A stretch of DNA of 61,438 bases, filler included, from an uncultured bacterium (lineage in GTDB: Bacteria; CAYJOG01): assembly GCA_964371695.1 (NCBI GenBank). It is 4 parts of 4 records of this genome, joined end to end, with 100 filler letters (N's around TTAATTAATTAA, not from the genome) between each part and the next. Parts side by side here need not be neighbours in the genome. Positions count along the whole stretch, not along the records: positions 1 to 15,860 come from CAYJOG010000016.1; 3 more parts are not named here. The stretch is one strand, 5' to 3'. The number at the start of each line of letters is the position of its first letter. Within the stretch, counting starts at the first letter, position 1. Below are positions 1 through 22,049 of this stretch, in pieces. The position numbers were made by a program, and so were the translations under genes. The notes beneath the pieces were generated by a model. It saw nothing but the letters and a program-made list of their open reading frames with translations, was not told where the DNA came from and made no database searches.

Positions 1-3000
1 CGATTTCAGCACCACCGTTTTCACCCGGTCCATGGGGTCATAATCATAGGCAAACAAATTGCCGTTGGGGTCTATCGTGGTGAGCACCCGGTGGGCAGTG
101 TCATAGGTGAAATGGGTGGTGCGGGCCTCGGTTGTTCCCTCGGCTTCGGTCACGGTTTTCACATCGGCGGTGCCATCGAAATAGGTGTAACGGGTAATGT
201 GACCTGCCACATCCTTCACCGTTTCCAGCAAGCCCTTGTCGGTGTAGGTATAACTGATGGTGCGGTTTTCATCGCTCTGTGCCCCAGGGGCGGCAGGGCG
301 CTTGATGGTAGAAACCTGCCGGGTGGCGGTGTAGGTGTACTCGGTGATATTACTCCGGGCATCGGTCACAGACTTTACTAACCCCTTTTCTGTGCCCTGG
401 GTGTAATACTCGGTGAAGACCTGGATATTTCCGGGCAGGGTGGTGGTCATTTTTTTGAGGACCATCTTGTCCACGGCGTCTGTGATTGTTTCAAGGATGC
501 TGTTTAAATCATTAAAGCCCCCTGCATCATCGGCACTCATCACCATTTCATAGGCATAGGTGGTGGTGGTTTTTTCATCTCCCTCACCCACCGACATTTC
601 CGTCACCCGGTTTCTGGCGTCGTATTTGTATTCGGTGAGAACCCCGCCGGGGTCACGCCGCGTGAGCATGTTGTTGCGATCGTCATAGGTCATTTCTGTC
701 ACGCCAATGGGAGAAATCGTTTTGACAAGGTTGTAATCAGCGTCGTATTCAAACGAGGTCACCTTGTCAAGGTGGTCCGTCATGGTGAGCGGCTGGTTGT
801 TTTCGTTGTAGGTGTAGGTGGTGACACGATTTAACTCATCGGTGATGGTGAGTACGTTACCCTGACCGTCGTAGGTGTATTTAACCATGGAATCGTCTGG
901 TTGGGTGATCTCGGTGGGCAGCAGCAAGGTGGGATGCAACACTTCAGTGCGGCTGCGCTGCGCTTGGTCTTTGATGCTGACGGTGGGTATGGAAGGGGCA
1001 TTGGTTGAAGATGGCGGCACAGTGCCATAGGTATAAGACTCAGTGTGACCAAAGGGGGAAACGATGGTCTTTACCCGGCCTTCGGGCGTTACCTGACCAT
1101 TGCTCGTTTCATACTCAAAAGAGGTGGTATTGCCATTGGGGTCCGTTATCTCGGTGGGCAAATGCCCCAAGCGAGCATCATTCAAATATTTGCGTTTGGA
1201 ACCATCGGCATAATCTGCCCCTACCACCCGCTGGGTACCACCAACAAGCTCTTTAGCAGCGTTAAATTGTTCATCCCGCTGAAACTTAACCTGATTACCA
1301 TAGGGATCGATGGCGTGGGTGACGCGCCCCTGATCATCCCGCTGGTATTTCATGCCCCTATCCATGCCGGGCTTGGGAATCCTCACCAGCATCTCCGCCG
1401 GGTCGGGAGCCGGCGGAGGAGGCGGGGGAGGAGTATTTTGCGGCGGCGGTTGCTCAAACACAGGACGGTTAAAAAATTTCACATACTGCTTGCCGCTTTG
1501 CATCGTGGTGACCAAACGGAACAAATAAGACTGGCCGCCCTCTGTTGGGGTCACCCGATTGCCTGTAAAACGGCTTTTAAGATTCCAGACAAACGTGTTG
1601 TCATAACCTTTCAAATCCTCATCCCCCAGCACAGGCATGTGTCGAACCTCTTTCCAAACCACATTATCTTCTGCGTGAAACATCGGGTCGGAGGGATCTT
1701 TGTCCAACACCTGAAATTCCACGGAGACGACAGAAAAAGCCCCCCGTTTATCCTCAAAGTCATACTCCAGCAACATAAACTCCTGGCCATCCAGTGTCTC
1801 CACTTCCGTTTCCACGGTTTGACCACCCAAAATCTCGGCGTCAAACGCCCCCCCGAACAGCTCACCGGGACCAACGGGATAGGGCACTTTGTCGTTTAGC
1901 CCTTTGATGGTTTTCACCCTTCCTGAGTGGTCATAGGCCTTAAGCTGGAACTCATAGGCTCCTGGCTTTACCAGTTTGCCATCTGCACCCCGCCAATCCC
2001 ATTGAATAGGCACCGCTACCTGATCGCCCAGAATATCGCCATTCAAAATCTGCGCTTCGGTTACCGCTGATGGTGGAGGGGGCGTGATTTCGGGTGAGAC
2101 ATAAACTGGTGTGGATTCGCCTTTACGAAACACTTCTGCAATAAGTTTGTCGGTCTGCAAACTACTCACCAAGGCCTCTAAACTAGAAGCGTTGCCAACA
2201 GTGTGATTGCGGGCACACTCACCAGACAGGGGATTGATGCTGCCCAAGTCGTTCATATCCAGACACTTGCCAAATTGATAAAGGTCGTGGATAAGTGTAC
2301 CAACGGCCACGGCTTTCATGAAATCCGAAGAGGCAATTTTATCCACCTCCGCACACACCTCGGTTTGTTTTCCAAACGAACAAATGGTTTGAAGCGTTGT
2401 GAGGATGTCACGAATTTGATTTCCATACCCAAGTATTTGTTGCAGCAAGTTGTCATGTTCTTCTTTGGTTGTTCCAAGTTTCTTAATATCTTCCTTAAGT
2501 TTTAAGATATCGTTCTTCATGCTGCGCAGTTCCTGATTTTTTCTTCTAATGCTTGTGATGCTAAACTCCGCCCCTTCAAAAACACCAAGTATGGATTTGC
2601 TAAACCCAGCCAGAGTAACTAATAGTGCAGCTGTCTGAGTCCCATTCAGGCCACTTGTCAATTGGTCTGCAAACTGATTTACTTGGGCCTTAAGCTGGTC
2701 TTCAACAAGACCTGGATTCGCCATAAACTCTCTCGCACTATTCAAGGAACCGAACAGAAATGCTGCGTTTGAAAGCTTGTTTTTAATGGCTTCGCCATCT
2801 TGGCCGAGAGGAATATAGTTAACCACCGTCTCTAATTCTTTAAACAGATCTCTTGCCGCATGAAATGGTTGATTACCATTAAAAACATCATTAAAGCTTT
2901 GTTTAATCCCCGAAGCATGAGTTTCAAAGTTTTTTCCGAGACTAACAACACTTAGCACCTTATTTCCCCAATCCAAAGCTCTTGTTATACCAATGTAAGG

Positions 3001-6000
3001 ATTGTGCTCCACCCTGAAGCAGCGCTTTTCCGCGTGCAACACTCCATCGGGAGCCCCTGTTTTCCCTTGAACAATTATTCCATCAAAATCAATATTCGGA
3101 TCATTTAAGCCCCGGACATGAAGCTCTTGGAGCAAGTCCACAGAGCTTTCAACCTCTAATACTTCTCCCGTTTTTAGCACAACTTCAAACGGCCCGTTTA
3201 AGTGCTCATCTTTTTCAACCAACTCCTTTAAGTCAACCTGATATTTATTGGCATTTCCGGAAAACTCTGGATCTGCTGGCTCGCAAACCAATCGCGTGTT
3301 TGGTCTGATTACACCAACAGCCTTTAATAATGGGCACCCAATAGAGCATATCGTGCTTGCAATGTTGAAGTATTTGAATGTTGACAAGCCGACATCTATT
3401 TGATGAAGCGGGCCTTGGACACCTTCAGGAAGAGGTATGGTTTTGTTCGGTCTTAAAAAACTGTCCAAATTCCCAGCAAAATTAATAATTGGACACAATC
3501 CGTCACAATAAAATGCCAAAATCGGTCTCAAGATTTGTTTGTAAAGGAATTCGAGGATGTCGCCGATAACGGTCACAAAAGCAACGAGTGCCTGTACAAT
3601 GGCATCCACTAGCGACTTTAAAACATCGCCAACAAATTCAATAATGCCTCCAAGCGCTTTTTTGAACCACTTCTTGAGCTTCTTAAAAAACCCGTCGGAG
3701 GCAAACACGTCCAGTTCAGGTGAGAGTTCTTCATCCACGGTAAGCGCCTGTCCCTCATCCGCGCCATAATATTCCTGGAGGGGCGTGGCCAGGGTTTCCT
3801 CAGACAAGAATTTGCCTGCATTCATTCGCCCCCAGCCGAACTGTTTGTCGTTTCCTTTTTCGCCCAAGTCCTCGGCACTTTGATAAAGCATGGTGAGCAA
3901 TTGTTCTGGCGTGGCGTCATTCATCTTGGTGAGGAAATGCCCCACCGCGCCTGCTACCAATGCCGCCGCCGCAGAGGTGCCGGAAACGGACGCGAATTGC
4001 CCTCCCAGAGCGGTTGTGAGCAGGTTTACCCCCGGAGCTGTCATGTCCAGGAAATCCCCATAGTTCGAGAAGCTTGCAAGGGCGTCTTCGGTATCGGTGG
4101 CTCCCACCGCAATCACCTCTGGGAACGCCGCAGGATAAACCACTTTTTCCTGACCATCGTTCCCCGCTGAGGCCACCACCACCATGCCGCTTTGGCGGGC
4201 GTGGCGCACTGCCTCCCACAAAGCCAAGCTCGCAGCTGGGCCAGACACGCTCACCACAATCACCTTGGCTCTGCCATCCTGCACCACCCACTCAATGGCG
4301 CGGGCCAGATCACCACCACTGCCCCGGCCTTCTCCATCCAGCACCCTCACCGGCAATATCTTGCACCGGGGGCAAATGCCCGCCCCGCCCTGCGCGTTGT
4401 TGGGGGCCGCCGCGATCAACCCCGCCATCTGGGTGCCATGGCCAAAGACATCCTGGGCCGTTTGATCCTGTTCAATAAAGTCTGGGCCATCCAACACCCG
4501 GCCCTGGAGTTCGGGGTGAGTGGCGTCCACGCCAGAATCCAACATGGCAACCACCACTTCGTGCTCATAAGGACCATTTTGCGCCCACACTTGGTTGTAG
4601 CCCGTTTTGGCATAGGCCCATTGATCATTAAGCCGAGGATCGTTAGGTGCCGCAGCCGTGACTTGTTCTGTGCTGGCCTTGGCGAGGAAATTCAGTTCCA
4701 CCGCCGCAAACAGTTTTTCTTTTTGCAAGGCCTCCGCAGCCTCCAGCAGGTTTTTGCCCTTGGGTAACAAAACCACCACCGATTGCTGGCCTGCGGACGG
4801 CCCACGGGTGAGCCCATGCCGCTTGAGCATGGCATCCACCGCGCTCAAATCCGCCTGAGGAGCCAGTGTCACCAACAATTCGTCGCTCATCACCTCGGCC
4901 TGTTCTGGTACATGGGCCAGAGGGTTTAGCCAATGCGCCTCCACCATGTCGCTGGCTCGGAGTTTTTTGTCCGCCAGGGACAAATCGGCCCCGCTGCCGG
5001 CCTTGATGTAGAGAAGACCTTCACGGCTCAACCCCGGTACCACCACCAGACGAAGCTCGGTGAGCAGGCCCTTCAGGGCGCTGGCGGTGACGCCCTCTTT
5101 CAGTTTGATCACCAGATCGTGGCTTGCGGAATAGTTCTTCAGCAGGTCCGACAGCGTGGCCTTGGGGCGATCCTGCCAGTCACGCCCTCGAGACACCTGC
5201 ACAACCGCCTGTTCTTCCTGTTTTTGTTGTTGCGCCCGCACCTGGTTTTCACGCCGTAGCTGGCCCAGGTCGAGCCACAACAACCCTTTGGACCCAATAG
5301 CGACGGCACGCTCTCCTTCCAGAGGCAACACGCCATACATTGGGCTATAGGCCAAAACACCTTTGGCGCCACTCCTCTTGTCCACCCAGGCAAGGCCATT
5401 GCCAGCCGTCAGGCGCAACTCTCCCGTGACCAACAGACCATCGGGCCTTTCCAATGGGAAGGGAAACCCCTGTTCCGGCTTGCTTTCTCCTTGCTTCAAT
5501 TTCACCACAACGCCCAGGTTTTTATCCACCACGGCAGTTTGTGTTTCCCCCATCAGGTGCAAGTGACTGGACGTGGCGCTGAGGCCTTCCAAAAACTCCT
5601 GCCCCACCGTGTCCCCCAACTTGGACGGCTCCCACTGGCGGATTTTCTCGTTGTGCGCCAACAGAAACTTTTTGCCCGCCATGTGGTCGTAACCCACCAG
5701 CCAGGCTTTGTTTTGAAACACCGTCAGGCCATGCACCCTGATAACTGCAAGGCCCTCCTCTTTACCGAACCCTTTGAACTGCAGCGTCTTAAGATCCACG
5801 GCATAAGCCGGTTGCAGCTTTTGCACAAAGTTTTCGGGATGCGCCTGGATAATTTTTTGTTTTTCCTCGGGCAATGGTTCGTCGGGATTGATGGGCTGCT
5901 CAAAGCGTTTGGCTAACCCCAACCACAAGCGGCCCCCCTGCAGGGCAGCGGCGGAAATAAACGCATCAAACATGCGGCCCTTTTTAAAATGCCCCAAGCC

Positions 6001-7473
6001 CAGACGACGCACCCGTTTCAGGTTTTTGTCGAAAAACCGTACTTCGTTTTGCAACACCACAATCCCTTGAGTGGGCGTGGCCAACAGCGCCACGGGTTTG
6101 ATGGCTGCATCTGCACTGCTGGAATAATTCTCCAGCAGTTTCACCGTTCCTGTTTTGAGTGACAACGCGCTCAGGCGGTCACTTCGCAACACCAGCAGTT
6201 GATCCCCCAATTTGGCTACACCGATAGCGAATCGCATGGCGGGGTGCTGCGGCAAGTCCGTGACGGTGGGCGCAACCCATGCCGTGCAACCCGCCGCACC
6301 CACCCCACAACGCCACACCCCGGTACCGGAGCTGACCAGATATTGCCCCTGCGCCAATGGCAGCACGTCATGCACGTTGACCGTGGGCAGGACTCCCGCC
6401 ATGAAAAGAGGGGCAATCCCCAATCCCTGGGGCTCCGCCGTCACCGCCAACACACCCGCCGCCGCTGTGGCAACCAACAATTCCTTCTGAGATTTATACA
6501 CGGCATGAATCCGGCCCACAGCACTCACCACGGGCTTTTGGCCGGGATAGGACACGGGGTCCGCGGCCAATGCCTGCCAAGTCTTTTTCTTCAGGTCATA
6601 GGCAAACAGGCCGTCCTCATAAACCAGCACCAAACGCCCTTGCCATAACAACAGTTTTTGCAGGTTTGAGACAACGGGTTTTTCAAACGGCGTGAGGTTG
6701 TTTTTGCTTTTAACTGTCACCGTTTTTTTCGCCGGGTCTATTTTTAGATCAAGTTGCAGTACAAGCTTTTGACCCGAGAACCACACCCGCTCCATCTGGC
6801 CAGCAATCAACATGTCGTTGATGACCAGATCCTTGTGTTTTTCAAACTCCGGCAGCGGCAGGCTTTTGAAGTTTTCACCGCTGGTGCTCACCAACCGCAG
6901 TCCTTTGTTGGTGTTCACCAACACCAAACCATAACGCTCCACAAAGGCGCGAATGGTCTCCCCACCGGGAAATTGCAGGGGAATGGGTTTCCAGCGATTT
7001 TCATACGCGTCAAAGCCAGTGAGCTTTTGGCCTTTGTCCATGACAACCAGACGGCTACCCAAGGTAAAGGTCTGGATTTCTCCGTTCAGGGCCAGATCCT
7101 TGAGGGAATAAACTCTGGCCTGCACCGGTCTGGCCTTGGGCACGATCCACACGCCCTCGGCCCCCACGCCATACACGTTCAACCGGTCAGACACCATGCC
7201 CAGCGGCTTGCCCACCAAGGGAAAGGTTTTCTCCAAACGGGCGACTTTGCCACTTTTGACATACATTTGCAGGTTCGCACCCCGCAACACCCACAGGCGG
7301 TCGCCATGGGTTTCCAACGTGGCGCTGGGATGGGTGAGGTTAATGTGTTGCGGCGGCATGGCGGCAGATGCCCCTCGTCCGCAGCAGACCAACAGCACGG
7401 CCAAAACCTGCGGCCAAAAGGTTTTGGGCCAACGCACCGGAGATATGAAGGAGTGAAAGGGGGGCATGGTCAT
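1..7473 (-). CDS. Giant secreted multidomain protein (>=2491 aa, 3' end outside window): signal peptide, beta-propeller-like region, two I9-like prodomains, S8 subtilase, helical low-GC domain, FlgD-type Ig domains, Pro linker, YD/RHS repeats
   Basis: Translated by hand from ATG at 7473 (MTMPPFHSFISPVRWPKTFWPQVLAVLLVCCGRGASAA). No stop was seen in the segments translated, and the ORF track lists no stop-terminated ORF from this start. S8 motifs: PNDPRLNDQW (~4647), VAMLDSG (Asp 4537-4539), HGTQMAG (His 4438-4440), ASAGN, GTSAAA (Ser 3973-3975). YD repeats such as YTYDGQGNVLTITDELNRVTTYTYNENN and YKYDARNRV run from ~1340 to 1. Confidence 0.9.
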   Translation of the reverse strand, partial: MTMPPFHSFISPVRWPKTFWPQVLAVLLVCCGRGASAAMPPQHINLTHPSATLETHGDRLWVLRGANLQMYVKSGKVARLEKTFPLVGKPLGMVSDRLNVYGVGAEGVWIVPKARPVQARVYSLKDLALNGEIQTFTLGSRLVVMDKGQKLTGFDAYENRWKPIPLQFPGGETIRAFVERYGLVLVNTNKGLRLVSTSGENFKSLPLPEFEKHKDLVINDMLIAGQMERVWFSGQKLVLQLDLKIDPAKKTVTVKSKNNLTPFEKPVVSNLQKLLLWQGRLVLVYEDGLFAYDLKKKTWQALAADPVSYPGQKPVVSAVGRIHAVYKSQKELLVATAAAGVLAVTAEPQGLGIAPLFMAGVLPTVNVHDVLPLAQGQYLVSSGTGVWRCGVGAAGCTAWVAPTVTDLPQHPAMRFAIGVAKLGDQLLVLRSDRLSALSLKTGTVKLLENYSSSADAAIKPVALLATPTQGIVVLQNEVRFFDKNLKRVRRLGLGHFKKGRMFDAFISAAALQGGRLWLGLAKRFEQPINPDEPLPEEKQKIIQAHPENFVQKLQPAYAVDLKTLQFKGFGKEEGLAVIRVHGLTVFQNKAWLVGYDHMAGKKFLLAHNEKIRQWEPSKLGDTVGQEFLEGLSATSSHLHLMGETQTAVVDKNLGVVVKLKQGESKPEQGFPFPLERPDGLLVTGELRLTAGNGLAWVDKRSGAKGVLAYSPMYGVLPLEGERAVAIGSKGLLWLDLGQLRRENQVRAQQQKQEEQAVVQVSRGRDWQDRPKATLSDLLKNYSASHDLVIKLKEGVTASALKGLLTELRLVVVPGLSREGLLYIKAGSGADLSLADKKLRASDMVEAHWLNPLAHVPEQAEVMSDELLVTLAPQADLSAVDAMLKRHGLTRGPSAGQQSVVVLLPKGKNLLEAAEALQKEKLFAAVELNFLAKASTEQVTAAAPNDPRLNDQWAYAKTGYNQVWAQNGPYEHEVVVAMLDSGVDATHPELQGRVLDGPDFIEQDQTAQDVFGHGTQMAGLIAAAPNNAQGGAGICPRCKILPVRVLDGEGRGSGGDLARAIEWVVQDGRAKVIVVSVSGPAASLALWEAVRHARQSGMVVVASAGNDGQEKVVYPAAFPEVIAVGATDTEDALASFSNYGDFLDMTAPGVNLLTTALGGQFASVSGTSAAAALVAGAVGHFLTKMNDATPEQLLTMLYQSAEDLGEKGNDKQFGWGRMNAGKFLSEETLATPLQEYYGADEGQALTVDEELSPELDVFASDGFFKKLKKWFKKALGGIIEFVGDVLKSLVDAIVQALVAFVTVIGDILEFLYKQILRPILAFYCDGLCPIINFAGNLDSFLRPNKTIPLPEGVQGPLHQIDVGLSTFKYFNIASTICSIGCPLLKAVGVIRPNTRLVCEPADPEFSGNANKYQVDLKELVEKDEHLNGPFEVVLKTGEVLEVESSVDLLQELHVRGLNDPNIDFDGIIVQGKTGAPDGVLHAEKRCFRVEHNPYIGITRALDWGNKVLSVVSLGKNFETHASGIKQSFNDVFNGNQPFHAARDLFKELETVVNYIPLGQDGEAIKNKLSNAAFLFGSLNSAREFMANPGLVEDQLKAQVNQFADQLTSGLNGTQTAALLVTLAGFSKSILGVFEGAEFSITSIRRKNQELRSMKNDILKLKEDIKKLGTTKEEHDNLLQQILGYGNQIRDILTTLQTICSFGKQTEVCAEVDKIASSDFMKAVAVGTLIHDLYQFGKCLDMNDLGSINPLSGECARNHTVGNASSLEALVSSLQTDKLIAEVFRKGESTPVYVSPEITPPPPSAVTEAQILNGDILGDQVAVPIQWDWRGADGKLVKPGAYEFQLKAYDHSGRVKTIKGLNDKVPYPVGPGELFGGAFDAEILGGQTVETEVETLDGQEFMLLEYDFEDKRGAFSVVSVEFQVLDKDPSDPMFHAEDNVVWKEVRHMPVLGDEDLKGYDNTFVWNLKSRFTGNRVTPTEGGQSYLFRLVTTMQSGKQYVKFFNRPVFEQPPPQNTPPPPPPPAPDPAEMLVRIPKPGMDRGMKYQRDDQGRVTHAIDPYGNQVKFQRDEQFNAAKELVGGTQRVVGADYADGSKRKYLNDARLGHLPTEITDPNGNTTSFEYETSNGQVTPEGRVKTIVSPFGHTESYTYGTVPPSSTNAPSIPTVSIKDQAQRSRTEVLHPTLLLPTEITQPDDSMVKYTYDGQGNVLTITDELNRVTTYTYNENNQPLTMTDHLDKVTSFEYDADYNLVKTISPIGVTEMTYDDRNNMLTRRDPGGVLTEYKYDARNRVTEMSVGEGDEKTTTTYAYEMVMSADDAGGFNDLNSILETITDAVDKMVLKKMTTTLPGNIQVFTEYYTQGTEKGLVKSVTDARSNITEYTYTATRQVSTIKRPAAPGAQSDENRTISYTYTDKGLLETVKDVAGHITRYTYFDGTADVKTVTEAEGTTEARTTHFTYDTAHRVLTTIDPNGNLFAYDYDPMDRVKTVVLKS

Positions 7474-7474
7474 G

Positions 7475-9286
7475 TCAGTTGCGCACCAGACAGAAGGGGT
7501 TTTTGTAAACAACGAAATATTCCTTGCTCAGATCATCCACCCAGGCCGTGACGGCGCCCGCGTTGCGCTGCGCCTCCACGTGGTTGACTTCCACCGGAGG
7601 GTTGCCTGCGGCAAAAACGTGTAAGCCCAAAGTGGGGCTGGGGGGATTGGGGGAGTTGTAAAAAGCGTTGTGGAAGGGCGTAAGGCTTTGGTAGTCGTAA
7701 TACAAGCCGATTTTGTGAGTGGGAACTGGGGATTCCTCAATCACCTCGAACGTTTGTGTGATGGGTTCGCTGGTGCCCCCGGTGACGCCGGTGGCCCTGA
7801 ACTGCACCGTGTGCTGCCCCACGGCCAAGCCGCTGAGCGTGATGGAAAACTTGGCGCTGGTGTGCGTGAACTCTCCTTCGCATTTGTTTACCATAATCCA
7901 ATTAATACTGTTATCCAGCTTGTATTCCAATGATTGCACCGCGTCATCCGCTTCTCCATTGATCGTCCCTTCAAATTCGGCAAATCTGGCGGATATGACA
8001 CCCCCGCCTGTCATGATGGGAGAACGCGTGAAGTTGATTGAAGGAGGCAGCGGATTGATTTTAAATCGGATCACTTTATCGTCGCATCCAATTAATAAAT
8101 AGCTATTTTCGGGATCGTACAATATTTTTTGGCGCCGTGGGGGGACGCCGTTATACACATAGCTGGATGCTTCTCCATTGGGGTGAAACCACCTTGCATC
8201 CCCATTGTTCGCACACTCTGGTATTTCTCCAAGAATAGAAACAGAATAGTCAGCGATGTTCGCCTTAAACACCTTTCTGTTTTTTGAGACCCCAAAAACG
8301 AATCCCTCTTCAGGACTATATGTAAAAGCGAATCTGCGATCGAGGTCGAGTTCCACAGGAGAGAACCTTTTTACTAAAGCCAGTGTTTTTCTATTGTAAA
8401 CATCAATGGAAGCCGGTGCTGGAGGGTCAAACCCATTGGCGTCCACTGAAATCCAAACCGTCTCAGTTTCCGGAACATTGACAATGGTCAATAAATCTGC
8501 CTCGTGGGGATATTGAAGGTCTCCAGCGGCATCGTTACTTCTAGCCGGAGAGCACGAGTCAACATTTATTATGTTGACATATGAGAATGCTGCTCCAGGT
8601 GGTTCCCAAGGAACCCAAACTGTGTTGACGCCACCATAATAATTTTCCTCCGGGTTTGTTGTCTGATAAAAAGAATCTGGAATAAACACAGGGTCAGCCG
8701 CATTTCTGATTTCGAAGTTAGGGAACGCTGCAGGCCATCCCGTATCGCAAATCGGCGCAAGGAGAGAAGAAGAATCCTTAAAAAATATGCCATGCATCGG
8801 AGACCCGCCAAACCTCCGTGCCCCATGAATAATTTTATTAATCGCAGATGGAGACTCTGCGATTCCAAACACATGGGAATATGGATAAGAATGGGGACCA
8901 AGAACCCCGGAAAGACTGGATGAGTTTAAAACTAAAAAAGTGTTCGGGTAGTTCAGAAGTAAAATATCATCACCGTCGTCGGAAAGCACGTTATAGCGTA
9001 TTGAAATATTACCCTGCATACTTGGAAATGGTCTTGTGTCAAAAACGGTGTCTCCCGTTCCGGCGTCAACTCTTCTTATTTTCTGATGGCATTTGACATA
9101 ATAGGCGTCTCCACTAATACCAAACAGATACCCTGGGCGTTCATCTGGCGCGCAGATCGGAAGCTCGACGATATCAAACGGCCCCGCCTTGGCGCTGGCT
9201 GTCAGGAACAACAGAGCAACAACCGTGATTTGAATGAATGTTCTGGTGACCCGCCACCAATGCTTTTGGTTTTTAGCCTTTTTCAT
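7475..9286 (-). CDS. Secreted beta-propeller-like protein with C-terminal Ig-like domain (~603 aa)
   Basis: ORF with signal peptide (MKKAKNQKHWWR...ALLFLTASAKA), beta-rich repeats and an Ig-like LAVGQHTVQFRATG segment. ATG at 9286 overlaps the upstream TGA, and the stop lies 1 nt before the next ATG. Confidence 0.75.
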   Translation of the reverse strand: MKKAKNQKHWWRVTRTFIQITVVALLFLTASAKAGPFDIVELPICAPDERPGYLFGISGDAYYVKCHQKIRRVDAGTGDTVFDTRPFPSMQGNISIRYNVLSDDGDDILLLNYPNTFLVLNSSSLSGVLGPHSYPYSHVFGIAESPSAINKIIHGARRFGGSPMHGIFFKDSSSLLAPICDTGWPAAFPNFEIRNAADPVFIPDSFYQTTNPEENYYGGVNTVWVPWEPPGAAFSYVNIINVDSCSPARSNDAAGDLQYPHEADLLTIVNVPETETVWISVDANGFDPPAPASIDVYNRKTLALVKRFSPVELDLDRRFAFTYSPEEGFVFGVSKNRKVFKANIADYSVSILGEIPECANNGDARWFHPNGEASSYVYNGVPPRRQKILYDPENSYLLIGCDDKVIRFKINPLPPSINFTRSPIMTGGGVISARFAEFEGTINGEADDAVQSLEYKLDNSINWIMVNKCEGEFTHTSAKFSITLSGLAVGQHTVQFRATGVTGGTSEPITQTFEVIEESPVPTHKIGLYYDYQSLTPFHNAFYNSPNPPSPTLGLHVFAAGNPPVEVNHVEAQRNAGAVTAWVDDLSKEYFVVYKNPFCLVRN

Positions 9287-12200
9287 CACGGTCCACCTCC
9301 CTGCGCCAGGATGATTTCTTGTGGTGGCGCGGTTTGGTCATCGAGAAGAAAGTAACGCCGCTCCGCGCCCACGTCCGCCACCAGCAGCAGGTGCTCCCGC
9401 TGGCGCTCCAGGCGCACCAAGCGCGACTGACCTTGGCCGGGATTCACGGGCAAGCGCTCCGCCGCCACCGGTCCCTGGGCGGGCTGACGGTAAAGCGCCA
9501 GTTCACCCTGCGCGTCACTGAGAAAATAGAGCCACTGGCCATCCACGGAATAGGTGGGATAGGTGTTCACCCGCGCATCGGGGGTGCTCACCGTGGACTG
9601 AGGTGTGAAAACCCCGCCGGTTACCAAGCCGGTGACAATTTCAAACCCACTTTCAGTCCTCACCACATAGGCCAGCCGCCCCCCCAACCCCAAACTGGGC
9701 AGACTGGCACGCTCATGAGTGCCACTCACTCTTGGCGGGTCGCTGGTGGGACCGTCGATGAGATAAATGCCACTTTTGCCTTGTTCGTCTGTGGCATCGA
9801 ACACCGCCAGGGGCTGATCTGGCGCGACGGAGGTGTAGCCAGGCGTGAGACCCGAAAGGCCAATCTTTTGGCCCGGCCCGGGTGGCCCCTGGCCCAGTTG
9901 CTGCACCCACAACTCACCCTCGCCCTGATCAGACACGCCTGAATAAATGAGAAAATTTTGTGGCGACACCGAAGGCAGCATGTGGCTGCCGGGGTTGGTG
10001 CTCACCGGCTGCTGGCCCCCCTGAGGTGTCCAGCGCACTACCTGAAAACTCCCCTGCACCATCCGCGTGAGGAACAGATCCTCCAGCGCCGGGCCGGGTT
10101 CCTCTCCAATATTCAACGTGTTGGTGAAAACCATTGCCGAGGTGTCCTGCAAGAAGGCCGGAATGGGATCTACCGAAACACCGGTGAGGGCCGCCTCATT
10201 CCAGCCAAACCCGGTATCGGCGCTGGCCGGTGGCGTCAATACATCAGGCACGAAGGCCTCTAAAGTGAGCGGCCCCAGTATTCCCCGCAGGGTGGGTTCA
10301 TCCACCTGCGTGAACAACGTCATGTGAAACGTGGGTCCATTGGGGACCACCATGGTGAGGAGGGCCGCATTCACCGGCGCAGCCTGAGTTGCCCGCACCC
10401 GTGTATTGTCCTCCGTCACAGGAAAAACATCGTCCAGGTTGGTGCCCGCGAACCCCAAACCAGGACGCTGAATATCAAACAGCACAAGGCTGTCATAGGC
10501 GACACCATCCATGGCCAGCGGCGTGAGACTCATGAGATAGTTGCCGGGAGGACGACTGAGATTGGTTGTCAGTTTGTCCACCTGCAGGATTTGAACCGTG
10601 TCGGCGACTTGATCCAAATTGGCGCTCAACTGCACCGCATAGGCGGACTCTGCAACGGTTGGCAATCCAGCTTCTGTATGACGAAGAGCAAACCCTGTGC
10701 CTTCTTCTGAATAAAAGCGGGCAATTCCCTGCTGGGGATCAAATTCCACCTTCACCACTGCGCTTGTCCCATTGGCGAACGCCAGACCCGGCAGCTCCAT
10801 GGTCTTGTTCACGCCCCCCAGGCTCACCAGCACCCTTAATCGGCATGGCCCATTCGGGTCTTGAACCATTTCAATGCCAAGTCCCTGGCAGGTAAGACAC
10901 CCCGAGGCCGGTTTGCCCAACCATAACCCAACGCCACCATGGTGTGTCAACTGGGCCGGAATCATCAGTTCACCTTCCACCCGAATGATTTCACCCTGTG
11001 GCGGCTGGTAGTCTCCAAAAACGGTTTCCACCCGCGAGTAGTTGGCATTTCCGCCGTGGCCCAAGGGAAACACCAAAACACCATTTTGAGCCACAGGATT
11101 CGCCACACTGTCCTGCACCACAATTCGCCACAAACCATCCTGCCCCACCTGCTCCCGCACGCGCAGGCTGTCGAACTCATCTACAAGGGGATTGGGGTAA
11201 TCAGGATCAGGGTTGAACACCAAATGACCAGGATTCACATACCCCGCCGCCACGCTGATGCCGCGCACCCCTCCGGTAAAGGGCCGGATGGCCGCCAACA
11301 CCTGCGCTGCCGTCTGGCCACCGGCGTCCTGATCAGTCACCAGGGGCGCAATCCCTTCATAATTTCCACTACCTGGAGGTTGCTCTGCCAGTGAAATCAG
11401 TTGGGAGAGCACCGCCTCTGGCGAAGGCCCGGAGCCCCCCTGATGAGAAGGATTCAGCAACAGGGCTTTGAGATCAGCTATTCCCGCTTCGGCCCGCGCC
11501 CGGATTCGCAACAGATCGCCCACTTGCACCGCTTGCGCCGAGGGATTCGAATCCTTCACCAACTGCGCTTGAGATGATGGAGGCGGTGGAGGTGGCGGCC
11601 CTTGGTTCGTGACCAGCGTGTTCACCGCGAGGTTACCCGCCCGGTCGGCCACCGTGAGCACAAACGTGTGAGGCGTGTTGGGATCCAGCGGGCTAGGTGT
11701 ATTTGCTAAAAATTCGCCTGAAGACCCAGTCAGGATGGAAACCTGAACACCATCCACCGAGAGAGAGAGGCGGGTTTGATCCACACCACTCCCCATGTTC
11801 CCCTGGGGCTCCTCCACCCTGAATCGCAGGGATGACGCCGGTGAATAATTTCCCTGTGCCGTGGGGTTCAACCAGGAGACCGCAGGGGGCAATGTGTCCA
11901 GCAAAATCTCCAGCAGCCGTGGATCACCCACGTTGCCCGCCTGATCGGTGACGCTGAAAAGGAAGGAATTCACCCCTTCCTGCAATGACACGGGCACCTG
12001 AAACCGTCCATCGGGAAGCACCAGCACTGGTGTGTTATCCATGTTCAGTGACGCCCCAGGCTCCGTCACGCCTTCCACCAACACTGAGGGCATGTTCACA
12101 TAGGCGGGATCGCGGGCGGGTTGAATAATCTGAATAAACGGTGGCGTGGTGTCTGGCGCATCGGTTCTGGTCACCACCAACGTGGTGGTGACCACGTTAC

Positions 12201-15200
12201 CGGCGCCATCCATCGCCGTCAGCACCAGAACATTGCCGCCTCCCTGCAGAGTGGCAGGGACGCTGAAATTTCCCCCCGCATCCAAAACAAGCGGCGTGTT
12301 CCCCATCGACGCCGTAGCCACAAGACCGCTGTCGTCCTGAATCGTACCCGTCACCGTCACCATCTGTTCCGTGGTTTCAAACGGAGAATTGGTGGGGAAC
12401 GTCACGGTGATCACCGGGGGCGCATGGTCTTGCTGCGGGGGTGGTGGTGGGCCTTGGGTGGACAAGGTGATCATCCTCACCACAGACACACTTTTCCCGC
12501 TGCCGTCGGTGGCCTGAAACGTCAACGCATTGGGACCCGGCGACAAAAACACCAAGCCTTGAAACTGGCCATTCGTCAAGGTCAGCGGCCTGCCGTTCAC
12601 CATCACAGACACCACACCCGACCCTTCGTCCACCGCCTGGCCCGAAACCATGAACTCTGCCGAGGAAACCGTGATGTCGCCCTGGGGTTGCATCAAATTA
12701 AGCGTAGGCGGCTGGGTATCCACCACAAAATAGGCGCTGGCCGTTGGTGCGGCATTACCATTGATATCCCTGGCCTCCACACTCAGAAAGTGCCCCCCCT
12801 CCGCCTTGGCTTCAAGCATCGTATTCACGGTCACGGGTACGCCCACTGGGGAACTCCACTGCAGGAGCGTCACCGAAGCGCCATCCAGCAGAATGACTAC
12901 GCTGGTGCGGTCGATGTCTTCGTTGTCCGTAATCCCTGCAGATACCCCAAACGGCATTTGGGTCACCATCTGACCCGGTGTGGGTGAGAACAACTGAATC
13001 TGCGGGGCGTTAGGGTCCGGCGGGCTGTAGGTGAGTATTCTCACCACAGGAGCAGAGAAATTGCCCGCATTGTCCCTGGCTTGAATGGAAAACACATTCT
13101 GACCAGGAGCCAACGTCATGCTGAAGTTAAAGCCGGTGGGGCCAATGGCCGCCACCGCGCCATTCACCATCACCTGTGACACCCCCGAAGCCCCATCCGC
13201 CACCGTCCCCAGCAAAGTCACGGAAGCCTGGCTAACCACGATGTCCTGGGGATGGCTGATGAGGGTCAACACCGGCGGCTGGGTATCTAAATTAAATCCA
13301 CGGGTGGCCGAGGACGTTTTCCCAGCGCCGTCCTGCACCGTGATGGTCAGAAAATGCGCTCCATCTCCCCGATTGGGCAACATGCCCTGAACCACCTGCT
13401 GGGTGGCGGACCCGGCAGCGGCGGGCAACTGCCCCGTGATGGAAGAACCATCCAGACTGATGTTGATGGTGTTGACGTTCACCTGCTGGTCATCGGTGAA
13501 AACCACCTCCAGGGAAACTGGCTGGGTATTCAGCCAAATGCCTTCCTGGGGGCTTTGCACCAACACCTGGGGTGGCGCAGTATCCCCAACGATAGGAGTG
13601 TACTGAATCTGACGCACCAGCGTGGCGGCGTTACCGCTGTTGTCCGTGGCTTGAAAAGTCAACACGTTGGGACCTGGGTTTAGTGCCTGCATAAAGCTAA
13701 AAGCACCGCCCTGCAGCGTCACCGTCACACCGTTCAAAGTAAGCAACGCCACGCCGGTGCCCCCATCCGTCACGGTTCCCTCAAACAACAGACTGGCGGT
13801 GGTCACCGTGGTGTCGGCGGGGGGCTGGGTCAGCGTAATTTGAGGGGGCGTGGCGTCCACCACCGGCGGGGTATACGTCAAGGTGCGCACTACCGGTGAT
13901 CCCGCGTTACCGCTGCCGTCCACCGCTTGTAACGTCACTGTGTTTACACCCGGCGACATTGCCTGACTAAATTGAAACGACTGGCCCTGTAAAGTGACCG
14001 ACGAGCCATTTACCAACAACTGCGCCACGCCGCTGAGGTCATCGGTGACCGTCCCCTGAAAAGTCACGTTCGCTGTGGCCACCGCACCATCTGCGGCGGG
14101 TTGGGCCAACGACACCACCGGACCCGTAGTATCCGGGGGCACGCTTTGCTGCCCCGTCGCCGTCACCACCATGGTGGTGGTGTTACCTGCCGCGTCCACC
14201 GCCGTGACGGTGAAAGTGTTCACTCCCAAAGCCGCTGCCACCGATGGCGCTTGATAACTGCCGTTGTTGTTGGTGGCGGCCACCCCGTTTACCGTCACAT
14301 TCGCGCCGACCTCGGTGGCGCCCGCCACCACAATGGCTTGGCCCTGGGTCACCACAAGCCCCTGCAACGGCTGTGTCACGGTGAGGGAAGGCGCGGCGGT
14401 ATCCAACGTCACCTGCAATACCTGGGTGCTTGTGTGTCCTACACCATCGGTGGCAATCACGGTGAGCGTGTTCGGCCCCTCCGCCAATGTTACCGGCAAT
14501 GAAAAACTCCCCGCCGACACAGGGGCGTTCACACCATTGATTTGCACTGTGGCGGGCGTGAAATTGTCCGTGGCGGTTCCCGTCACGGTAAATGGGTTTT
14601 GATTCGTCACCGTGCCATTCAGGGGAGACGTCACCGCCAGCACCGGCGCAGTAAGGTCCACAGTGAAATTCACCGAGGCCTGCGCCGCCGCGTTGGCGGA
14701 TGTGTCCGCACCGTCCAGCGTGAGTTGGTGCGCCCCTTCGCCAAGTCCGTTGGCGGTGTAGGTCACGCTGGGCAAAGCCACCACCGCCGACACCGCCACA
14801 CCATCAAGTTTGAGTTGAACGCTACCACCGTCCACCGCCACGTTGTCCGTCACCGCACCGGTCACCGCCACGGTGCCAGAACCAAACAACTGACCCGGCC
14901 CTGGCGCAGACAGCGTCGCCACCGGTGGCGTGAGGTCCGGCGGCGTGTAAGTAACCGTGCGTTGCACCGTGGCGCTGTTGCCCGCCACGTCCGTTCCCAC
15001 GAAGGACAACACGTTCACACCGGAGGTCAAATTCACATTGTCAGAGAACCCGCCTCCCGCCAAGGCCAGCGCCTGCCCATTCACTGTCACCGATTGTGTT
15101 CCGCTGCCGCCGTCCACCAGCGTGCCACTCACAGCCAGGGGCGTGCTGGTCACACCGATATCCGTTGCCGGGGCTGTGACGGTTAACGCCGGAGCGGTGG

Positions 15201-15860
15201 CATCCACCGTGAAGGTGCTAACCAATACGGTGGGGATTCCCGTGGTGTTTTGCAGCGTCACCTGCAACGTGTGCAGGCCGTCTGCCAGTGCGGTGACCAA
15301 TGACCCCATGGCGTCACCCGCCCCAACGGTCAGGTTGCCGGTTACGTTCGCGCCATCCACCGTCACCTGCAACGACCCCGTGTTGACGCCGCTTTGGGGA
15401 TCGGAATAGGTCACGCTCACCAGCGGCGTGGCGTCGTTCACCAGTTGTCCCGCCGTGGGGACGGTCACCGCCACCGAAGGACCGCTCATATCCAGGCCGG
15501 TGCTGGCGTAGACGATGCGCTTCTCCTCGCTCTCCGCGATATAAAGGTCTCCCGTCACGGGATGAATGGCCAACCCCTGAGGCTCGTTCAACTCGTTATG
15601 GCTCAAAAGAATTTCCGGTCCCAGGCCATTGGGAAACTTCCATAGAATTTTGGAGCCAATACCCAGATACAAGTTGCCCGCCTGGTCGCTGACCAAGGCC
15701 TTGGGATTATTTTGCATCCCGATGTCCTCGATCAACACGGCCACCACGCCACCCCCCGGCTGAGGATCAAGCCGGTACAGATGCATGTCGGGGCCTTCCA
15801 GCGTCACCGTAAAAATGCGGCCATTGGGGTCCTTGGTCAGCCCCCAGGTGTGTCCATGTG
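9286..15860 (-). CDS. Giant Ig-like repeat surface protein (5'-truncated, >2190 aa): NHL repeats, ~14 bacterial Ig-like repeats, beta-sandwich domain, C-terminal TolB/PD40-like propeller
   Basis: The frame is open from the contig end at 15860. It has NHL-like PQGLAIHPVTGDLYIAE, about 14 units starting D-x-x-[AGP]-P with G-x-N...A-x-D-x-x-G-N, and a PD40-like YPTYSVDGQWLYFLSD near the C-terminus. Confidence 0.85.
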
Positions 15861-15960
15861 NNNNNNNNNNNNNNNNNNNNNNNNNNNNNNNNNNNNNNNN
15901 NNNNTTAATTAATTAANNNNNNNNNNNNNNNNNNNNNNNNNNNNNNNNNNNNNNNNNNNN
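15861..15960. other. Contig junction spacer (N-run with TTAATTAATTAA)
   Basis: N44 + TTAATTAATTAA + N44, an artificial all-frame-stop linker. Confidence 0.98.
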
Positions 15961-18428: not shown

Positions 18429-21400
18429 TCACCCCCCTGCCTCCACCACCCGGCCAGCGCGCAGAAACCACAGCTCAAAGCGGGGAGGTGATTTCAGACC
18501 CAGCGCCAGGGCCACCGCCTGCACATAAAGCTGACCCTGGGGGGCATAGGCGCGGGTTTTTTCCTGCAATCCGGCTTCATCCGCCACGTGGTCGGTTTTG
18601 AAATCCACCACCACCAGGCCGCCGTCTTCATCCTGATACAACAAATCCAGCGCGCCATACACCGCCCCCACCGGCGGGCTGCCCGGCAACGCCGCCGCCT
18701 GGGGCGAAAGCAGCAGCGGCAGTTCCCGCGCCACCACCCGCGGGCCAAGTTCAAACAAGCGCTGGCCCAGGGGGCCTTGCAGCAGGGTTTGCAGCAACTC
18801 CCCGGCCTCTTTCAGGGCGGCCTCGCCGGGGGGCGTGTCCAGCCGCCGGGCGGCCTGTTGCAGCAGCGCGGGCAAGGCCGCGCGCGCCGCGCCGGGTGCG
18901 GTGTGCAGGTCCAGATTTTCCAGCACGCCATGCACCAGCACACCCACCGCCATGGCGTCTGGGCGAGACAGGGACGTGAGTGCGCCGGTTCCGTCCTGGG
19001 CATCCGCATCATCGCGCCACCGGTGATGCGCCTGGGCCGAGGGGGTGGTGTGCCAGGGCCGGGACTGATGCTGGGCGGCCAGGGCGCGTTTTTGCACCAG
19101 CGCGTTTTCGGCTGCCAGCAGGACACCGGCGTCCGGGCCGGTGGATGTTTCTGCACCGGACGTGGCGGGAAGATGCGCGGGTTGTTCGGGTTCCTGAAGC
19201 ACTGCCACGTGCCGCACGGCAACACCCGGCGGCCCCTCACCGGCGGCGGGCCAGCCTGCCAGACTGGGCTTCAGCAGATCAACCAGCGTGACGATTTCAG
19301 GCACGGTTTCCCCGGCCCCAGTGGGCAGAGACGCAAATATCACCAGACGGCGCCTGGCGCGGGTGGCGGCCACATAAAGCAGGCGCACGGTTTCGGCGGC
19401 GGCGATTTTTTCGTCCAGCGCCTGGGCCTGATGGGCCAGCAGGTTGCCGTGCCCCATGAGCATCAGGGCGGGCGCGTCATTCACGTTTTTGAGAAAATCG
19501 CTGGCCCGCTGACGCGCCTGTCCGCGGGCCAGATCCGCCAGATACACCTGTTCAAATTCCAGGCCCTTGGCGGCGTGGATGGTCATCACCTGCACCGCGT
19601 CTGCCTGGGCGGGCGCAGTGGTGACCTTGACCTCTTTCACCCCCAGCGCGCCGTTGCGCAACTGGCGCAACAGGGCCACCGGCCCACCGCCGGGGTCGTG
19701 CAAAGTTTCGCGGGCCAGGCGCAAAAAACGGTTGAGCGTGGCCAAGCGGTGCGCCCCCAGAAAACGCGCCGCCTCGGTGGCCTGCGGGTGAAACAGGGTG
19801 TGCAGACGCTCAAAAAAAACATCGGTGGCGTCGTGGGCAAAAGACATCCTGAGCTGGGCCATGGACCGCGCCCCCGCCATAAAGACCACCGGCCAGTTTT
19901 TCAGCGCCCCGGCGGCGGGCAGATTTTCGCGGGCCAGTTCGGCGGCGGCCTCCTCCGTTTTTTGCCGCATGTCCCCCAACACGGCGTCACCGGGCGCAGA
20001 CAGGTTCGAGAACCATTCCGGCAGTCCCTTTTGCCACAGACGCAGCAGCGCCCAGTCGGGCAGTCCCACGGCGGCGCTGCGCAGCCAGGTGAGAAGCGCC
20101 AGATGATCCGCCGGGTCCAGCACCACACGCAGCAGGGCGGCGGCGTCCAGCACCACCCGCTGCAAAAACCAGTGGCGCTCCACCTGCACCACATAAGGCA
20201 CACCCGCCTCGCGCAAGGCCCGCAGGTAAACCTCCTGACTGCTGGTGGCGCGCAGCAGCAGGGCGGCTTTGGAATATTCACCCAGCGCGCCGCTCTGTTT
20301 CAGCGCCAGCAGATCCCGCGCCAGCAGGCGGGCCTCCCACCGGCGCTCCGCCTCGGCGCTCAGGGGCTTGCCCTTGCCCGCTTCGGGCAAACGCCACAGC
20401 TCCACAGCCCGGCGGGGGCCGCCACCCTGCTCAAAAAAATCTCCCGCGGCTTCGTTTTCTTCGCTGGGGGTGAGGAACTCATAGTGGGGCTGCACGCCTG
20501 TTTCGTGCTGCATCACCGGCGATATCAGGCGGTTGATCTGTCTTAAGATTTCAGGCCCGGCGCGGTGGTTGACGGTGAGGGTGTGTTTTTCGCCGCCCAT
20601 GTCCCTGAGAAAGTTTTCGTAACTGGCCAGGTCCGCCGCCCGCCACGCATAGATGCACTGCTTGGGGTCGCCCACCACAAACAAAGCGGGGCGGTTTTCT
20701 CCGGTGAGAGCCAGCCTGCGCACCACGCCGCACTGGGTGGTGTCGGTGTCCTGAAACTCATCCACCAGCAGCAGGCGCAGGCGGCATTGCTCCAGCGCGG
20801 CCACACGGGCATTTTGCAGCGCCCCCAGGGCCTCTTTGAGCAACCCCTGAAACGTGATGAGGCCCTTTTGACGGGCGCGGCGCTGCACCTCGCGCAGCAA
20901 GGGAGCCAGCGTGGCGGCGAGGGTCTGGATGGTGTCCTGATCTTCAAGTCGCTGCAGCAGGCGCAGGTGTTTTCGCGTCTGCCGGGCGCTCGACACGAGC
21001 AGGGGGCGGTTCAGGGTTTCACATTGTTCTTCGGTCTTGTTCCACTTTCCTTTTTTCCAGTCGTCCAGTTGTTTTATTACCTTGTCATTTTCCTGCGCGG
21101 CGCAAACCAGGTCTCCCAGTGAGGGGTTCTTCTCTTGCATCCGTTCCATGGCCCAGCACCACTCGGCAATCTCCTTCGGTTTTCTGAGGTTTTTCTCCCC
21201 CAGCAACGGCGCAAGGGCCTGGGCGAGTTGCGACAGCGCCGCGAAAAATGCGTCCGCAAAAACCCCGGTGACGGCGGGCGGAAACAGGTCCTGCTCCATC
21301 AGGTGTGAGTCCGCGTGTTCACCCGCCAGACGCAGCAACACCTCCGCCAACTGGTCCATGTCCACGGCCTGCTCAAACAACTGGCGCAAACTCGGCGCGA

Positions 21401-22049
21401 CGGCGTGCAGGTTTTTGTTTTGACCACTCCCGGCGGATTGCGACAACGCCAGGGCCAGGGCCTCGCGCATCACGTCGCGCACGATTTCTTCCAGTCCCAG
21501 ATTCTCGGCGTCTACCTGCAAAGCGGGGTGCAGGTTGCTGGTGAGCGCGTGGCGCGTGATCACCCCCCGGCAACAACTGTGGATGGTGCCGAGCGTCATG
21601 AAATCCAGCGACAGCAACAGCGCCTGGGCGCGGGCGCGGGCCTGCTCTGGCGCAAGATGCTCAAAAGGCTGGCCCTGGCTGGGTCGCACAAAAAACAGGT
21701 CTTTGCCTTGGGCCAGGCAAGACAGTTTTTCCGCCACGCGGTCTTCCAGTTCGGCGGCGGCTTTTTCGGTGAAGGTGATGGCGCACACACCCGCCGCCGC
21801 GCGCCGGGCCACATCGGGCGCCTCGGGGGCGGGGCCGGGTTTTTCTCGTAGTTCGGCTTCGGCTTTTTCCCAGCCGGGGCCAATGCACCACGCCAGAATG
21901 CGCTCTACCAGCACGGTGGTTTTGCCGGTGCCCGCGCCCGCCTCCAGGGCCAGAGGCCGGTCAAACACACGCACGGCCAAGCGGCGGGCGTTGGTGTCGC
22001 GCTCCCGCGCCAGCAGGATTTCCTGTTTTTCCTGTGCGCTGAAACTCAC
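18429..22049 (-). CDS. addA: ATP-dependent helicase/nuclease subunit A (AddA/UvrD-like with PD-(D/E)XK C-terminus)
   Basis: EAGAGTGKT, AITFTEKAA, VDEFQDT, VGDPKQCIY, MTIHAAKGLEF, LYVAATRAR and the nuclease motif DLL...VDFKT. GTG at 22049 overlaps the addB stop. Confidence 0.9.
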   Translation of the reverse strand: MSFSAQEKQEILLARERDTNARRLAVRVFDRPLALEAGAGTGKTTVLVERILAWCIGPGWEKAEAELREKPGPAPEAPDVARRAAAGVCAITFTEKAAAELEDRVAEKLSCLAQGKDLFFVRPSQGQPFEHLAPEQARARAQALLLSLDFMTLGTIHSCCRGVITRHALTSNLHPALQVDAENLGLEEIVRDVMREALALALSQSAGSGQNKNLHAVAPSLRQLFEQAVDMDQLAEVLLRLAGEHADSHLMEQDLFPPAVTGVFADAFFAALSQLAQALAPLLGEKNLRKPKEIAEWCWAMERMQEKNPSLGDLVCAAQENDKVIKQLDDWKKGKWNKTEEQCETLNRPLLVSSARQTRKHLRLLQRLEDQDTIQTLAATLAPLLREVQRRARQKGLITFQGLLKEALGALQNARVAALEQCRLRLLLVDEFQDTDTTQCGVVRRLALTGENRPALFVVGDPKQCIYAWRAADLASYENFLRDMGGEKHTLTVNHRAGPEILRQINRLISPVMQHETGVQPHYEFLTPSEENEAAGDFFEQGGGPRRAVELWRLPEAGKGKPLSAEAERRWEARLLARDLLALKQSGALGEYSKAALLLRATSSQEVYLRALREAGVPYVVQVERHWFLQRVVLDAAALLRVVLDPADHLALLTWLRSAAVGLPDWALLRLWQKGLPEWFSNLSAPGDAVLGDMRQKTEEAAAELARENLPAAGALKNWPVVFMAGARSMAQLRMSFAHDATDVFFERLHTLFHPQATEAARFLGAHRLATLNRFLRLARETLHDPGGGPVALLRQLRNGALGVKEVKVTTAPAQADAVQVMTIHAAKGLEFEQVYLADLARGQARQRASDFLKNVNDAPALMLMGHGNLLAHQAQALDEKIAAAETVRLLYVAATRARRRLVIFASLPTGAGETVPEIVTLVDLLKPSLAGWPAAGEGPPGVAVRHVAVLQEPEQPAHLPATSGAETSTGPDAGVLLAAENALVQKRALAAQHQSRPWHTTPSAQAHHRWRDDADAQDGTGALTSLSRPDAMAVGVLVHGVLENLDLHTAPGAARAALPALLQQAARRLDTPPGEAALKEAGELLQTLLQGPLGQRLFELGPRVVARELPLLLSPQAAALPGSPPVGAVYGALDLLYQDEDGGLVVVDFKTDHVADEAGLQEKTRAYAPQGQLYVQAVALALGLKSPPRFELWFLRAGRVVEAGG

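Follow-up and report, generated by a model that had tools for sequence, protein, structure and literature searches.

An intact subtilisin-type protease fused to an RHS capsule in a giant gene of a very rare bacterial family

What protein is encoded by a very long reading frame at the edge of a genome fragment from an uncultured bacterium, and in which part of it should a cargo be sought? The fragment, called here the window, is the whole stretch of 61,438 nucleotides that was analyzed from GenBank assembly GCA_964371695.1 (lineage CAYJOG01), and the frame occupies its positions 7473 to 1 on the minus strand. A preliminary description, made from the sequence alone, had proposed a hidden protein of at least 2,491 amino acids (aa) combining an intact subtilase, a toxin-like helical cargo and YD/RHS repeats. 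The present analysis confirms that this giant gene exists and shows that it is of a very rare kind, an intact subtilisin-type protease being joined in it to an RHS capsule.

Translation of the complement confirmed the frame. It runs from position 7512 to position 1 as 2,504 stop-free codons with an open 3′ end and, from the ATG at 7471-7473, encodes 2,491 aa with 0 stops before leaving the window (7473..1, minus strand); residue r corresponds to window coordinate 7473-3(r-1) on this strand. The giant open reading frame (ORF) is indeed missing from the ORF track, as had been stated, and it seemed hidden because the default listing, from which open ends are excluded, drops ORFs that leave the window, which is an artefact of the listing and not biology. 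The window portion would encode about the first three quarters of the full protein. By rough analogy with P0122, a full-length relative described below, the missing part would consist of ~500 shell residues and a tail, the global alignment being unreliable at the very end.

The protease domain (residues 943-1221, 3811..4647, minus strand) matched Pfam Peptidase_S8 with an E-value of 1.1e-55, and its best sequence matches in the PDB were the AK.1 protease (1dbi, 6.8e-51) and thermitase (1thm, 8.9e-45). Asp979 (4537-4539), His1012 (4438-4440), Ser1167 (3973-3975) and Asn1105 (4159-4161) have aligned counterparts in the PDB enzymes and do not vary among the three sequences (3/3) of the family alignment A1. 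A thermitase-like S8 protease with a full Asp/His/Ser triad, situated N-terminal to the YD/RHS shell, had been proposed in the preliminary description; both the domain and its place in the order were recovered, and the intact triad suggests that the protease is apparently active and catalytically competent. The fold, the triad and the oxyanion Asn are common to thermitase, AK.1 and the window S8. The window S8, however, is embedded midway in a giant protein, and after the catalytic Ser the window protein reads GTSAAAALVAG where thermitase reads GTSMATPHVAG. Residue 3 of the thermitase chain, the start of which we take to be the mature N-terminus, was aligned to window residue 943, the alignment beginning at the sequence PNDP.

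At the other side of the fusion, residues 2028-2491 (1..1392, minus strand) form the N-terminal part of a YD/RHS shell, which is cut by the window end. The YD repeats noted earlier were recognized by Pfam RHS_repeat in 10 stretches (E 7.8e-39) and by TIGR01643 (E 1.6e-23), and the shell also matched the solved Rhs cocoons 7q97 (3.9e-20) and Tse15 (4.6e-14).

To place the gene in a family, a word-indexed homology search was run against 5.8 billion proteins, from which 120 matches were listed. With the whole protein as query, coverage among the matches listed was at most 19% of the query, the S8 or the RHS part being matched in each case. An exhaustive phmmer search with residues 1216-2010 against 1.84 billion cluster representatives recovered 7 proteins at E<=1e-3, 3 of them at E<=1e-30. 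Only P0122 (3,331 aa) and P0123 (3,712 aa) were full-length colinear relatives among these representatives, P0124 (1,771 aa) and P0125 (177 aa) being fragments of such proteins; the four are all singletons from metagenome sources. P0122 and P0123 have the same domain order as the window protein, which shares 890 identities over 2512 positions with the former (35%) and 737 over 2550 with the latter (29%), or 39% and 31%, respectively, in alignment A1. A profile word search with A1 found no further member (maximum coverage 22%). The search for the same domain order elsewhere, which the preliminary description had proposed, was thus answered by two full-length proteins and two fragments, and instead of a common, characterised family we found one that is genuine, though extremely scarce among the sequences available at present, and for which our literature searches revealed no experimental work.

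The C-termini of the relatives bear on the location of the cargo. P0122 and P0124 can be aligned over 1,510 columns with 62% identity, and this similarity ends exactly at the G of the DPxG motif (residue 3052 of P0122, residue 1504 of P0124), the tails beyond it, of 279 and 267 aa, being unrelated. Both proteins contain the RHS-associated core, inside which the similarity breaks off, above the cut-off of TIGR03696 Rhs_assc_core (E 8.6e-15 for P0122 and 2.3e-12 for P0124). Since the similarity stops at DPxG, the cargo of these relatives would be C-terminal; conservation up to this motif followed by unrelated sequence is, as read from the alignment, the classical polymorphic-toxin pattern. These data suggest that the variable toxin of the window gene is encoded at the far end that is missing here, which is its usual position in RHS toxins. 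No known toxin family was matched by either tail, and that of P0122 gave no Pfam match better than E 0.18 and no PDB sequence match at E<=1.

In the preliminary description, the cargo had been placed N-terminal to the shell, as a variable and toxin-like segment. The region concerned is a helical module of ~570 aa (residues 1222-1795), which we divided into two parts. The first, mid-A (residues 1222-1500, 2974..3810, minus strand), contains, besides the conserved linker sequence ELDxFAxDGxFKKL, an extended amphipathic helix and an alpha/beta portion rich in Cys; the second, mid-B (residues 1501-1795, 2089..2973, minus strand), is a divergent helical or coiled-coil part with the lowest third-position GC content (GC3) of the gene. 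Identity to P0122 is 39-55% over residues 1201-1500 and 24-28% over residues 1501-1800, and that of mid-B to P0123 is 13-17%. Eight Cys are invariant in the family alignment, six in mid-A and two in mid-B, and they fit an extracytoplasmic protein. Residues 1262-1320 form a conserved, amphipathic to hydrophobic helix (Kyte-Doolittle peak 2.07); the helix of P0123 is charged, not hydrophobic. In an AlphaFold2 (AF2) model computed from a 4-row alignment, the module was mostly helical, mid-A appearing as one long helix and, after it, some small strands, with a predicted local distance difference test score (pLDDT) of 43 for the module and of about 50-66 for the helices of mid-B. Foldseek with this model returned 0 of 500 matches at E<=1e-3. 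Residues 1222-1795 had no relative in Pfam, NCBIfam, PDB sequences or the Protein Atlas, where the top score (0.81) was below the lead level, and a PDB sequence search with the module and the Ig units gave nothing below E 0.01. The segment is AT-rich (see below) and, in a model of low confidence, mostly helical, as had been described, but no result supports the label 'toxin-like', and 'variable cargo' is not supported either: judged from the alignments, the module is family-conserved and colinear, not a swappable cargo, and the variable part of the family is C-terminal.

The base composition of the gene is uneven. GC content is 0.41-0.46 at positions 2001-3500 vs 0.51-0.62 elsewhere in the gene, and GC3 starts at 0.59-0.75 over the first 1,200 codons, falls to 0.34-0.43 for codons 1301-1700 (0.34-0.38 for residues 1501-1700) and returns to 0.54-0.68 thereafter. 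By comparison, GC3 is 0.76-0.82 in the housekeeping genes AddA and PolA of the window and 0.51 in the 604-aa gene immediately upstream. The GC3 drop at window positions ~2100-3700 therefore suggests a mosaic origin: the helical module looks acquired or replaced from a lower-GC relative, no donor having been identified, and the whole giant gene, by its composition, looks foreign to the genome. Searching the borders of the low-GC segment for repeats gave short matches only, probably due to chance.

The N-terminal half begins with a predicted Sec signal peptide (residues 1-37, 7363..7473, minus strand), in which inspection revealed R14 and K17, then a hydrophobic peak at 23-41, and 'ASA' at 35-37. 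The N-termini of the homologues look alike, and these sequence features would fit Sec-type export of the giant protein. An all-beta region follows (residues 38-780, 5134..7362, minus strand), for which no Pfam match was obtained. An AF2 model of residues 38-800 (alignment A3, 3 rows) displayed repeated blades of 3-4 strands, with a mean pLDDT of 57.5 and a pLDDT of at least 70 in 292 of 763 residues, and the top Foldseek matches listed from the PDB included multi-propeller proteins with E-values of about 1e-14 and template modelling scores of 0.18-0.34, namely IFT-A, DDB1, Utp21 tandem WD (small-subunit processome WD proteins), PorZ (5m11) and the BT4673 sensor domain (3ott). The region is thus modelled as propeller-like, probably as a tandem (~38-610, the remainder being poorly modelled), and its precise fold was not assigned. 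Two prodomain-like units had been announced before the S8. One of them (residues 855-928, 4690..4911, minus strand) is a Fervidolysin_NPro-like subtilase prodomain (Pfam PF22148, E 1.1e-4, 22.9 bits vs a cut-off of 21), also carried by P0122 (E 5.2e-10). The other (residues 781-852, 4918..5133, minus strand) is a sequence pattern without statistical support, with no Pfam match at E<=1 and no internal repeat in BLAST.

Between the helical module and the shell lie two FlgD-type immunoglobulin (Ig)-like units (residues ~1796-1890 and ~1891-2005; 1459..2088, minus strand). In the window protein, the match to FlgD_ig is weak and below cut-off (E 0.011, 16.1 bits vs 27), and PDB FlgD 3osv was matched at E 0.8 only. 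These units, whose FlgD-like motif named in the preliminary description lies at 1948-2007, are better supported in the relatives: FlgD_ig reached E 6.4e-5 (23.3 bits) in P0123, and the NCBIfam FlgD model NF009452 matched P0122 (1e-7), P0123 (3.6e-8) and P0124 (1.9e-6). The phmmer search also matched the Ig-repeat proteins P0126-P0128. A proline-rich linker, read directly from the sequence (residues ~2008-2027, 1393..1452, minus strand), then leads to the shell, P2010, P2015, P2018 and P2023 being invariant in the family alignment. The order first described, from signal peptide through propeller-like region, prodomain, S8, helical segment, FlgD-like Ig units and Pro linker to YD/RHS repeats, was accordingly recovered.

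Taken together, these features lead us to regard the protein, with somewhat better than even confidence, as a Sec-exported RHS toxin-type protein with a built-in, self-activating subtilase that would mature or release the capsule-bearing part. We infer every step of the mechanism that follows the domain assignments. The signal peptide would carry the protein across the inner membrane, and the S8 would fold on its own prodomain and, judging from where mature thermitase begins, cut itself near residue 941; such self-processing is plausible. This cut would part the propeller region and the prodomain from the S8-helical-Ig-RHS portion, both possibly staying bound non-covalently, and a second cut may take place in the conserved linker after the S8 (ELDxFAxDG, residues ~1254-1262). 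The protease, or the cleavage itself, would then mature or release the toxin-carrying part, as proposed for the in-built peptidases of polymorphic toxins. A stalk or plug bearing the RHS capsule might be formed by the conserved, disulfide-rich helical module together with both Ig units and the proline linker, and the propellers might bind the surface of the producer or of the target. Beyond position 1, we would expect ~500 more residues of the shell, a core of the RHS-associated type containing the aspartyl autoprotease motif DPxG(L/H), a variable toxin inside the capsule and, downstream of the toxin domain, an immunity gene.

Several points weigh against this reading. The C-terminus of the gene lies beyond the window, and with it the core motif, the toxin and the immunity gene; the C-terminal domain of P0122 is called a toxin by its position only, and the role of the S8 within the giant protein is likewise inferred. 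P0123 matches neither Rhs_assc_core nor DPxG, and the several hundred residues that make up its long C-terminal region (~2890-3712) gave no family match; it may be a variant whose tail is not cleaved, and consequently not every family member need be a cleaved toxin. The AF2 model of the helical module is unusable, and no fold was taken from it. Pfam and NCBIfam scans detected no delivery domain: neither residues 2000-2491 nor residues 1790-2010 matched, at E<=1, DUF6531, the plug that precedes the shell of many bacterial RHS proteins, no PAAR, VgrG-binding or prePAAR N-terminus was matched across the 2,491 aa, and SpvB, TcdB-type and NHL domains were not matched either. A protein of such size would also have to cross an outer membrane. 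Finally, a scan of 185,579 species-representative genomes gave 186 pattern matches, from which a single locus was confirmed, an unrelated Maribacter S8 (L001); neither the source genome nor a close relative is thus present in that collection.

Some of these points would suit a surface adhesin or cell-envelope protease better than a toxin. The RHS shell would then be structural or binding, as in teneurins. Proteins outside the cell would be digested by the subtilase, either as food or to get through the surface of prey or host, and the propellers and Ig units would provide attachment. P0123, with its coreless and unassigned C-terminal region, is in line with this proposal, as are the Ig-rich surface-type proteins encoded by both co-oriented upstream genes and the lack of any toxin family in the C-terminal domains of the family members. 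In P0122 and P0124, however, the tails that come after the canonical RHS-associated core are unrelated, which is the signature of toxin cassette exchange, and the window protein is nearer to P0122 than to P0123; we thus consider an adhesin unlikely, while giving it some weight. Even less probable is that the AT-rich helical module is itself the cargo, a pore-forming or membrane-active toxin lying N-terminal to the shell and freed by the subtilase next to it. The conserved helix of residues 1262-1320, the strongly conserved motif joining it to the S8, which could be a cleavage site, the deviant GC3, suggestive of a segment that came from elsewhere, and the divergence of the second half of the module, the highest in the family, would all agree with it. 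Against it, all full-length members carry the module in homologous and colinear form, the helix is charged in P0123, no toxin, pore-former or other family was resembled in Pfam, NCBIfam, PDB sequences, the Atlas or Foldseek, and the part that does vary in the family is at the C-terminus. We therefore hold this proposal to be very doubtful.

That the gene is an assembly chimera or a pseudogene, with a low-GC middle misjoined to unrelated S8 and RHS genes, could be suspected from the abrupt fall of GC3 within the gene and from its being cut by the window end. Yet the 2,504 codons stay open in frame, the junctions are devoid of repeats, and P0122 and P0123, which are independent metagenomic proteins of other sources, keep the same order across both junctions. 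Because two colinear homologues exist, chance or chimerism is ruled out as an explanation in our view, and this possibility is close to refuted; the in-frame stop or misassembly that might have split the ORF was not encountered. In a bolder form of the toxin reading, members of the family would each deliver an RHS capsule autonomously, as a single chain without any injection machine, a system in which the propellers recognise the target, the subtilase fires the maturation cut and the helical module is a new membrane-translocation device. This is speculative, and we see little chance that it is correct. If true, the helical module would do within one polypeptide what TcA does for TcB-TcC, and the codon-usage break would mark an exchange of delivery modules between lineages.

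With the Sec-exported toxin-type protein retained as the preferred reading, the surroundings of the gene can be described. Immediately upstream lies a 604-aa gene (7475..9289, minus strand) with a signal-peptide-like N-terminus and no Pfam or NCBIfam match, the stop codon of which is located 1 nt before the ATG of the giant gene. It overlaps by 4 nt with the ORF of an Ig-repeat surface-type protein of at least 2,173 aa (9286..15807, minus strand), which contains Pfam Glucodextran_B (E 7.1e-77, 9 stretches), Big_13 and Big_7, the NCBIfam OmpL47-type barrel and Ca_tandemer, and a C-terminal TolB/PD40-like repeat. Given this spacing of 1 nt and overlap of 4 nt, the three same-strand genes probably constitute a single operon that encodes surface proteins. 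Neither upstream neighbour was found to be a paralogue of the giant protein. The true start of the 2,173-aa ORF may lie beyond the runs of N at 15861-15960. Six runs of 44 N are present in the window (15861-15904, 15917-15960, 31364-31407, 31420-31463, 46529-46572 and 46585-46628), forming three pairs with 12 nt within each pair and about 15.2-15.5 kb between pairs; they look like masking, not assembly gaps.

The window is chromosomal, its gene content including PolA, an AddAB-like helicase-nuclease, BirA, thymidylate kinases and an exopolyphosphatase. The DNA polymerase I gene (26457-29177, plus strand) has listed homologues of many phyla that are 38-44% identical (at most 42% for full-length ones), one identical record aside, and because they are so distant the host lineage appears to be scarcely sampled. 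For a 343-aa ORF (45450-46481, minus strand), the only match was to the C-terminal secretin domain of the PilQ/GspD type (E about 1e-14); this gene ends beside a run of N and may have been cut by masking. As a secretin-like gene is present, the host probably has an outer membrane. The region 18429-25642 (minus strand) encodes an AddA/RecB-like helicase-nuclease of 1,232 aa and an AddB-like PD-(D/E)XK protein of 1,198 aa, the listed ORFs overlapping by about 80 nt. Two adjacent ORFs (39548-40285 and 40497-41342, minus strand) scored 81.0 and 77.6 bits with dTMP kinase, just below the cut-off of 83.25, and a tandem duplication is possible.

How RHS toxins reach their targets without a type VI secretion system (T6SS), a Tc partner or a wall-anchoring partner is poorly understood, and the present family, with its apparently active protease, propeller region, conserved helical module and capsule, offers a testable case of protease-controlled maturation. 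Its practical value is modest, the S8-RHS combination having been catalogued before and the gene being truncated in the window. Compared with the T6SS Rhs effectors (7q97, annotated 'Rhs family protein', Tse15 8uxt and Tre23 7pq5), the window protein has a homologous YD shell (E 3.9e-20 to 6.8e-14), and these effectors share the RHS-associated core and DPxG with P0122 and P0124. Unlike them, it has a predicted signal peptide, and its scans for PAAR-related N-termini, given above, were negative; no T6SS genes were found among the window ORFs scanned. The WapA-type RHS toxins of Gram-positive bacteria are also large proteins with a Sec signal peptide, which need no injection machine. WapA is not known to contain a protease domain, propellers or a helical module, and its hosts are Gram-positive, whereas that of the window has a secretin-like gene and probably an outer membrane. 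In the Tc toxin component TcB-TcC and in teneurins, an RHS capsule, a beta-propeller and Ig-like domains are combined in one large extracellular protein. The window protein may resemble these in its make-up, although its propellers are placed ~1,400 residues from the shell.

The nearest known systems are the S8-RHS toxins exported by Sec or the type II secretion system (T2SS). Prodomain-S8-DUF6531-RHS proteins made up 3 of the 120 listed matches (P0015, P0044 and P0067), and P0067 ends in a nuclease toxin domain of the contact-dependent inhibition (CDI) type. In tables of Zhang et al. 2012 (PMC3482391), subtilisin appears as one of the proteases that process Sec/T2SS polymorphic toxins, together with RHS and beta-propeller repeats, and 'Peptidase S8; repeats: RHS' is entered for the Ntox32 toxins; a 2022 paper (PMC9424270) describes a Gram-positive polymorphic toxin system in which a stand-alone S8 peptidase carries out the maturation. 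Full-text literature searches for S8-RHS fusions returned no experimental study among the matches listed. The principle of an N-terminal protease, a capsule and a C-terminal toxin is therefore already catalogued, and the architecture is less unfamiliar than had been thought. The window protein has in common with P0015, P0044 and P0067 a signal peptide, predicted in its own case, a Fervidolysin-type prodomain and S8 ahead of the RHS shell and, judging from its relatives, probably a variable C-terminal domain. In those proteins, the S8 is at the very N-terminus and DUF6531 joins it to the shell, whereas in the window protein ~800 aa of propeller-like sequence precede the prodomain, and the ~570-aa module and two Ig units stand between S8 and shell, with no DUF6531 detected. 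What is new here is this propeller-like N-terminus of ~800 residues, the helical module and two Ig units that replace DUF6531, and the rarity of the family.

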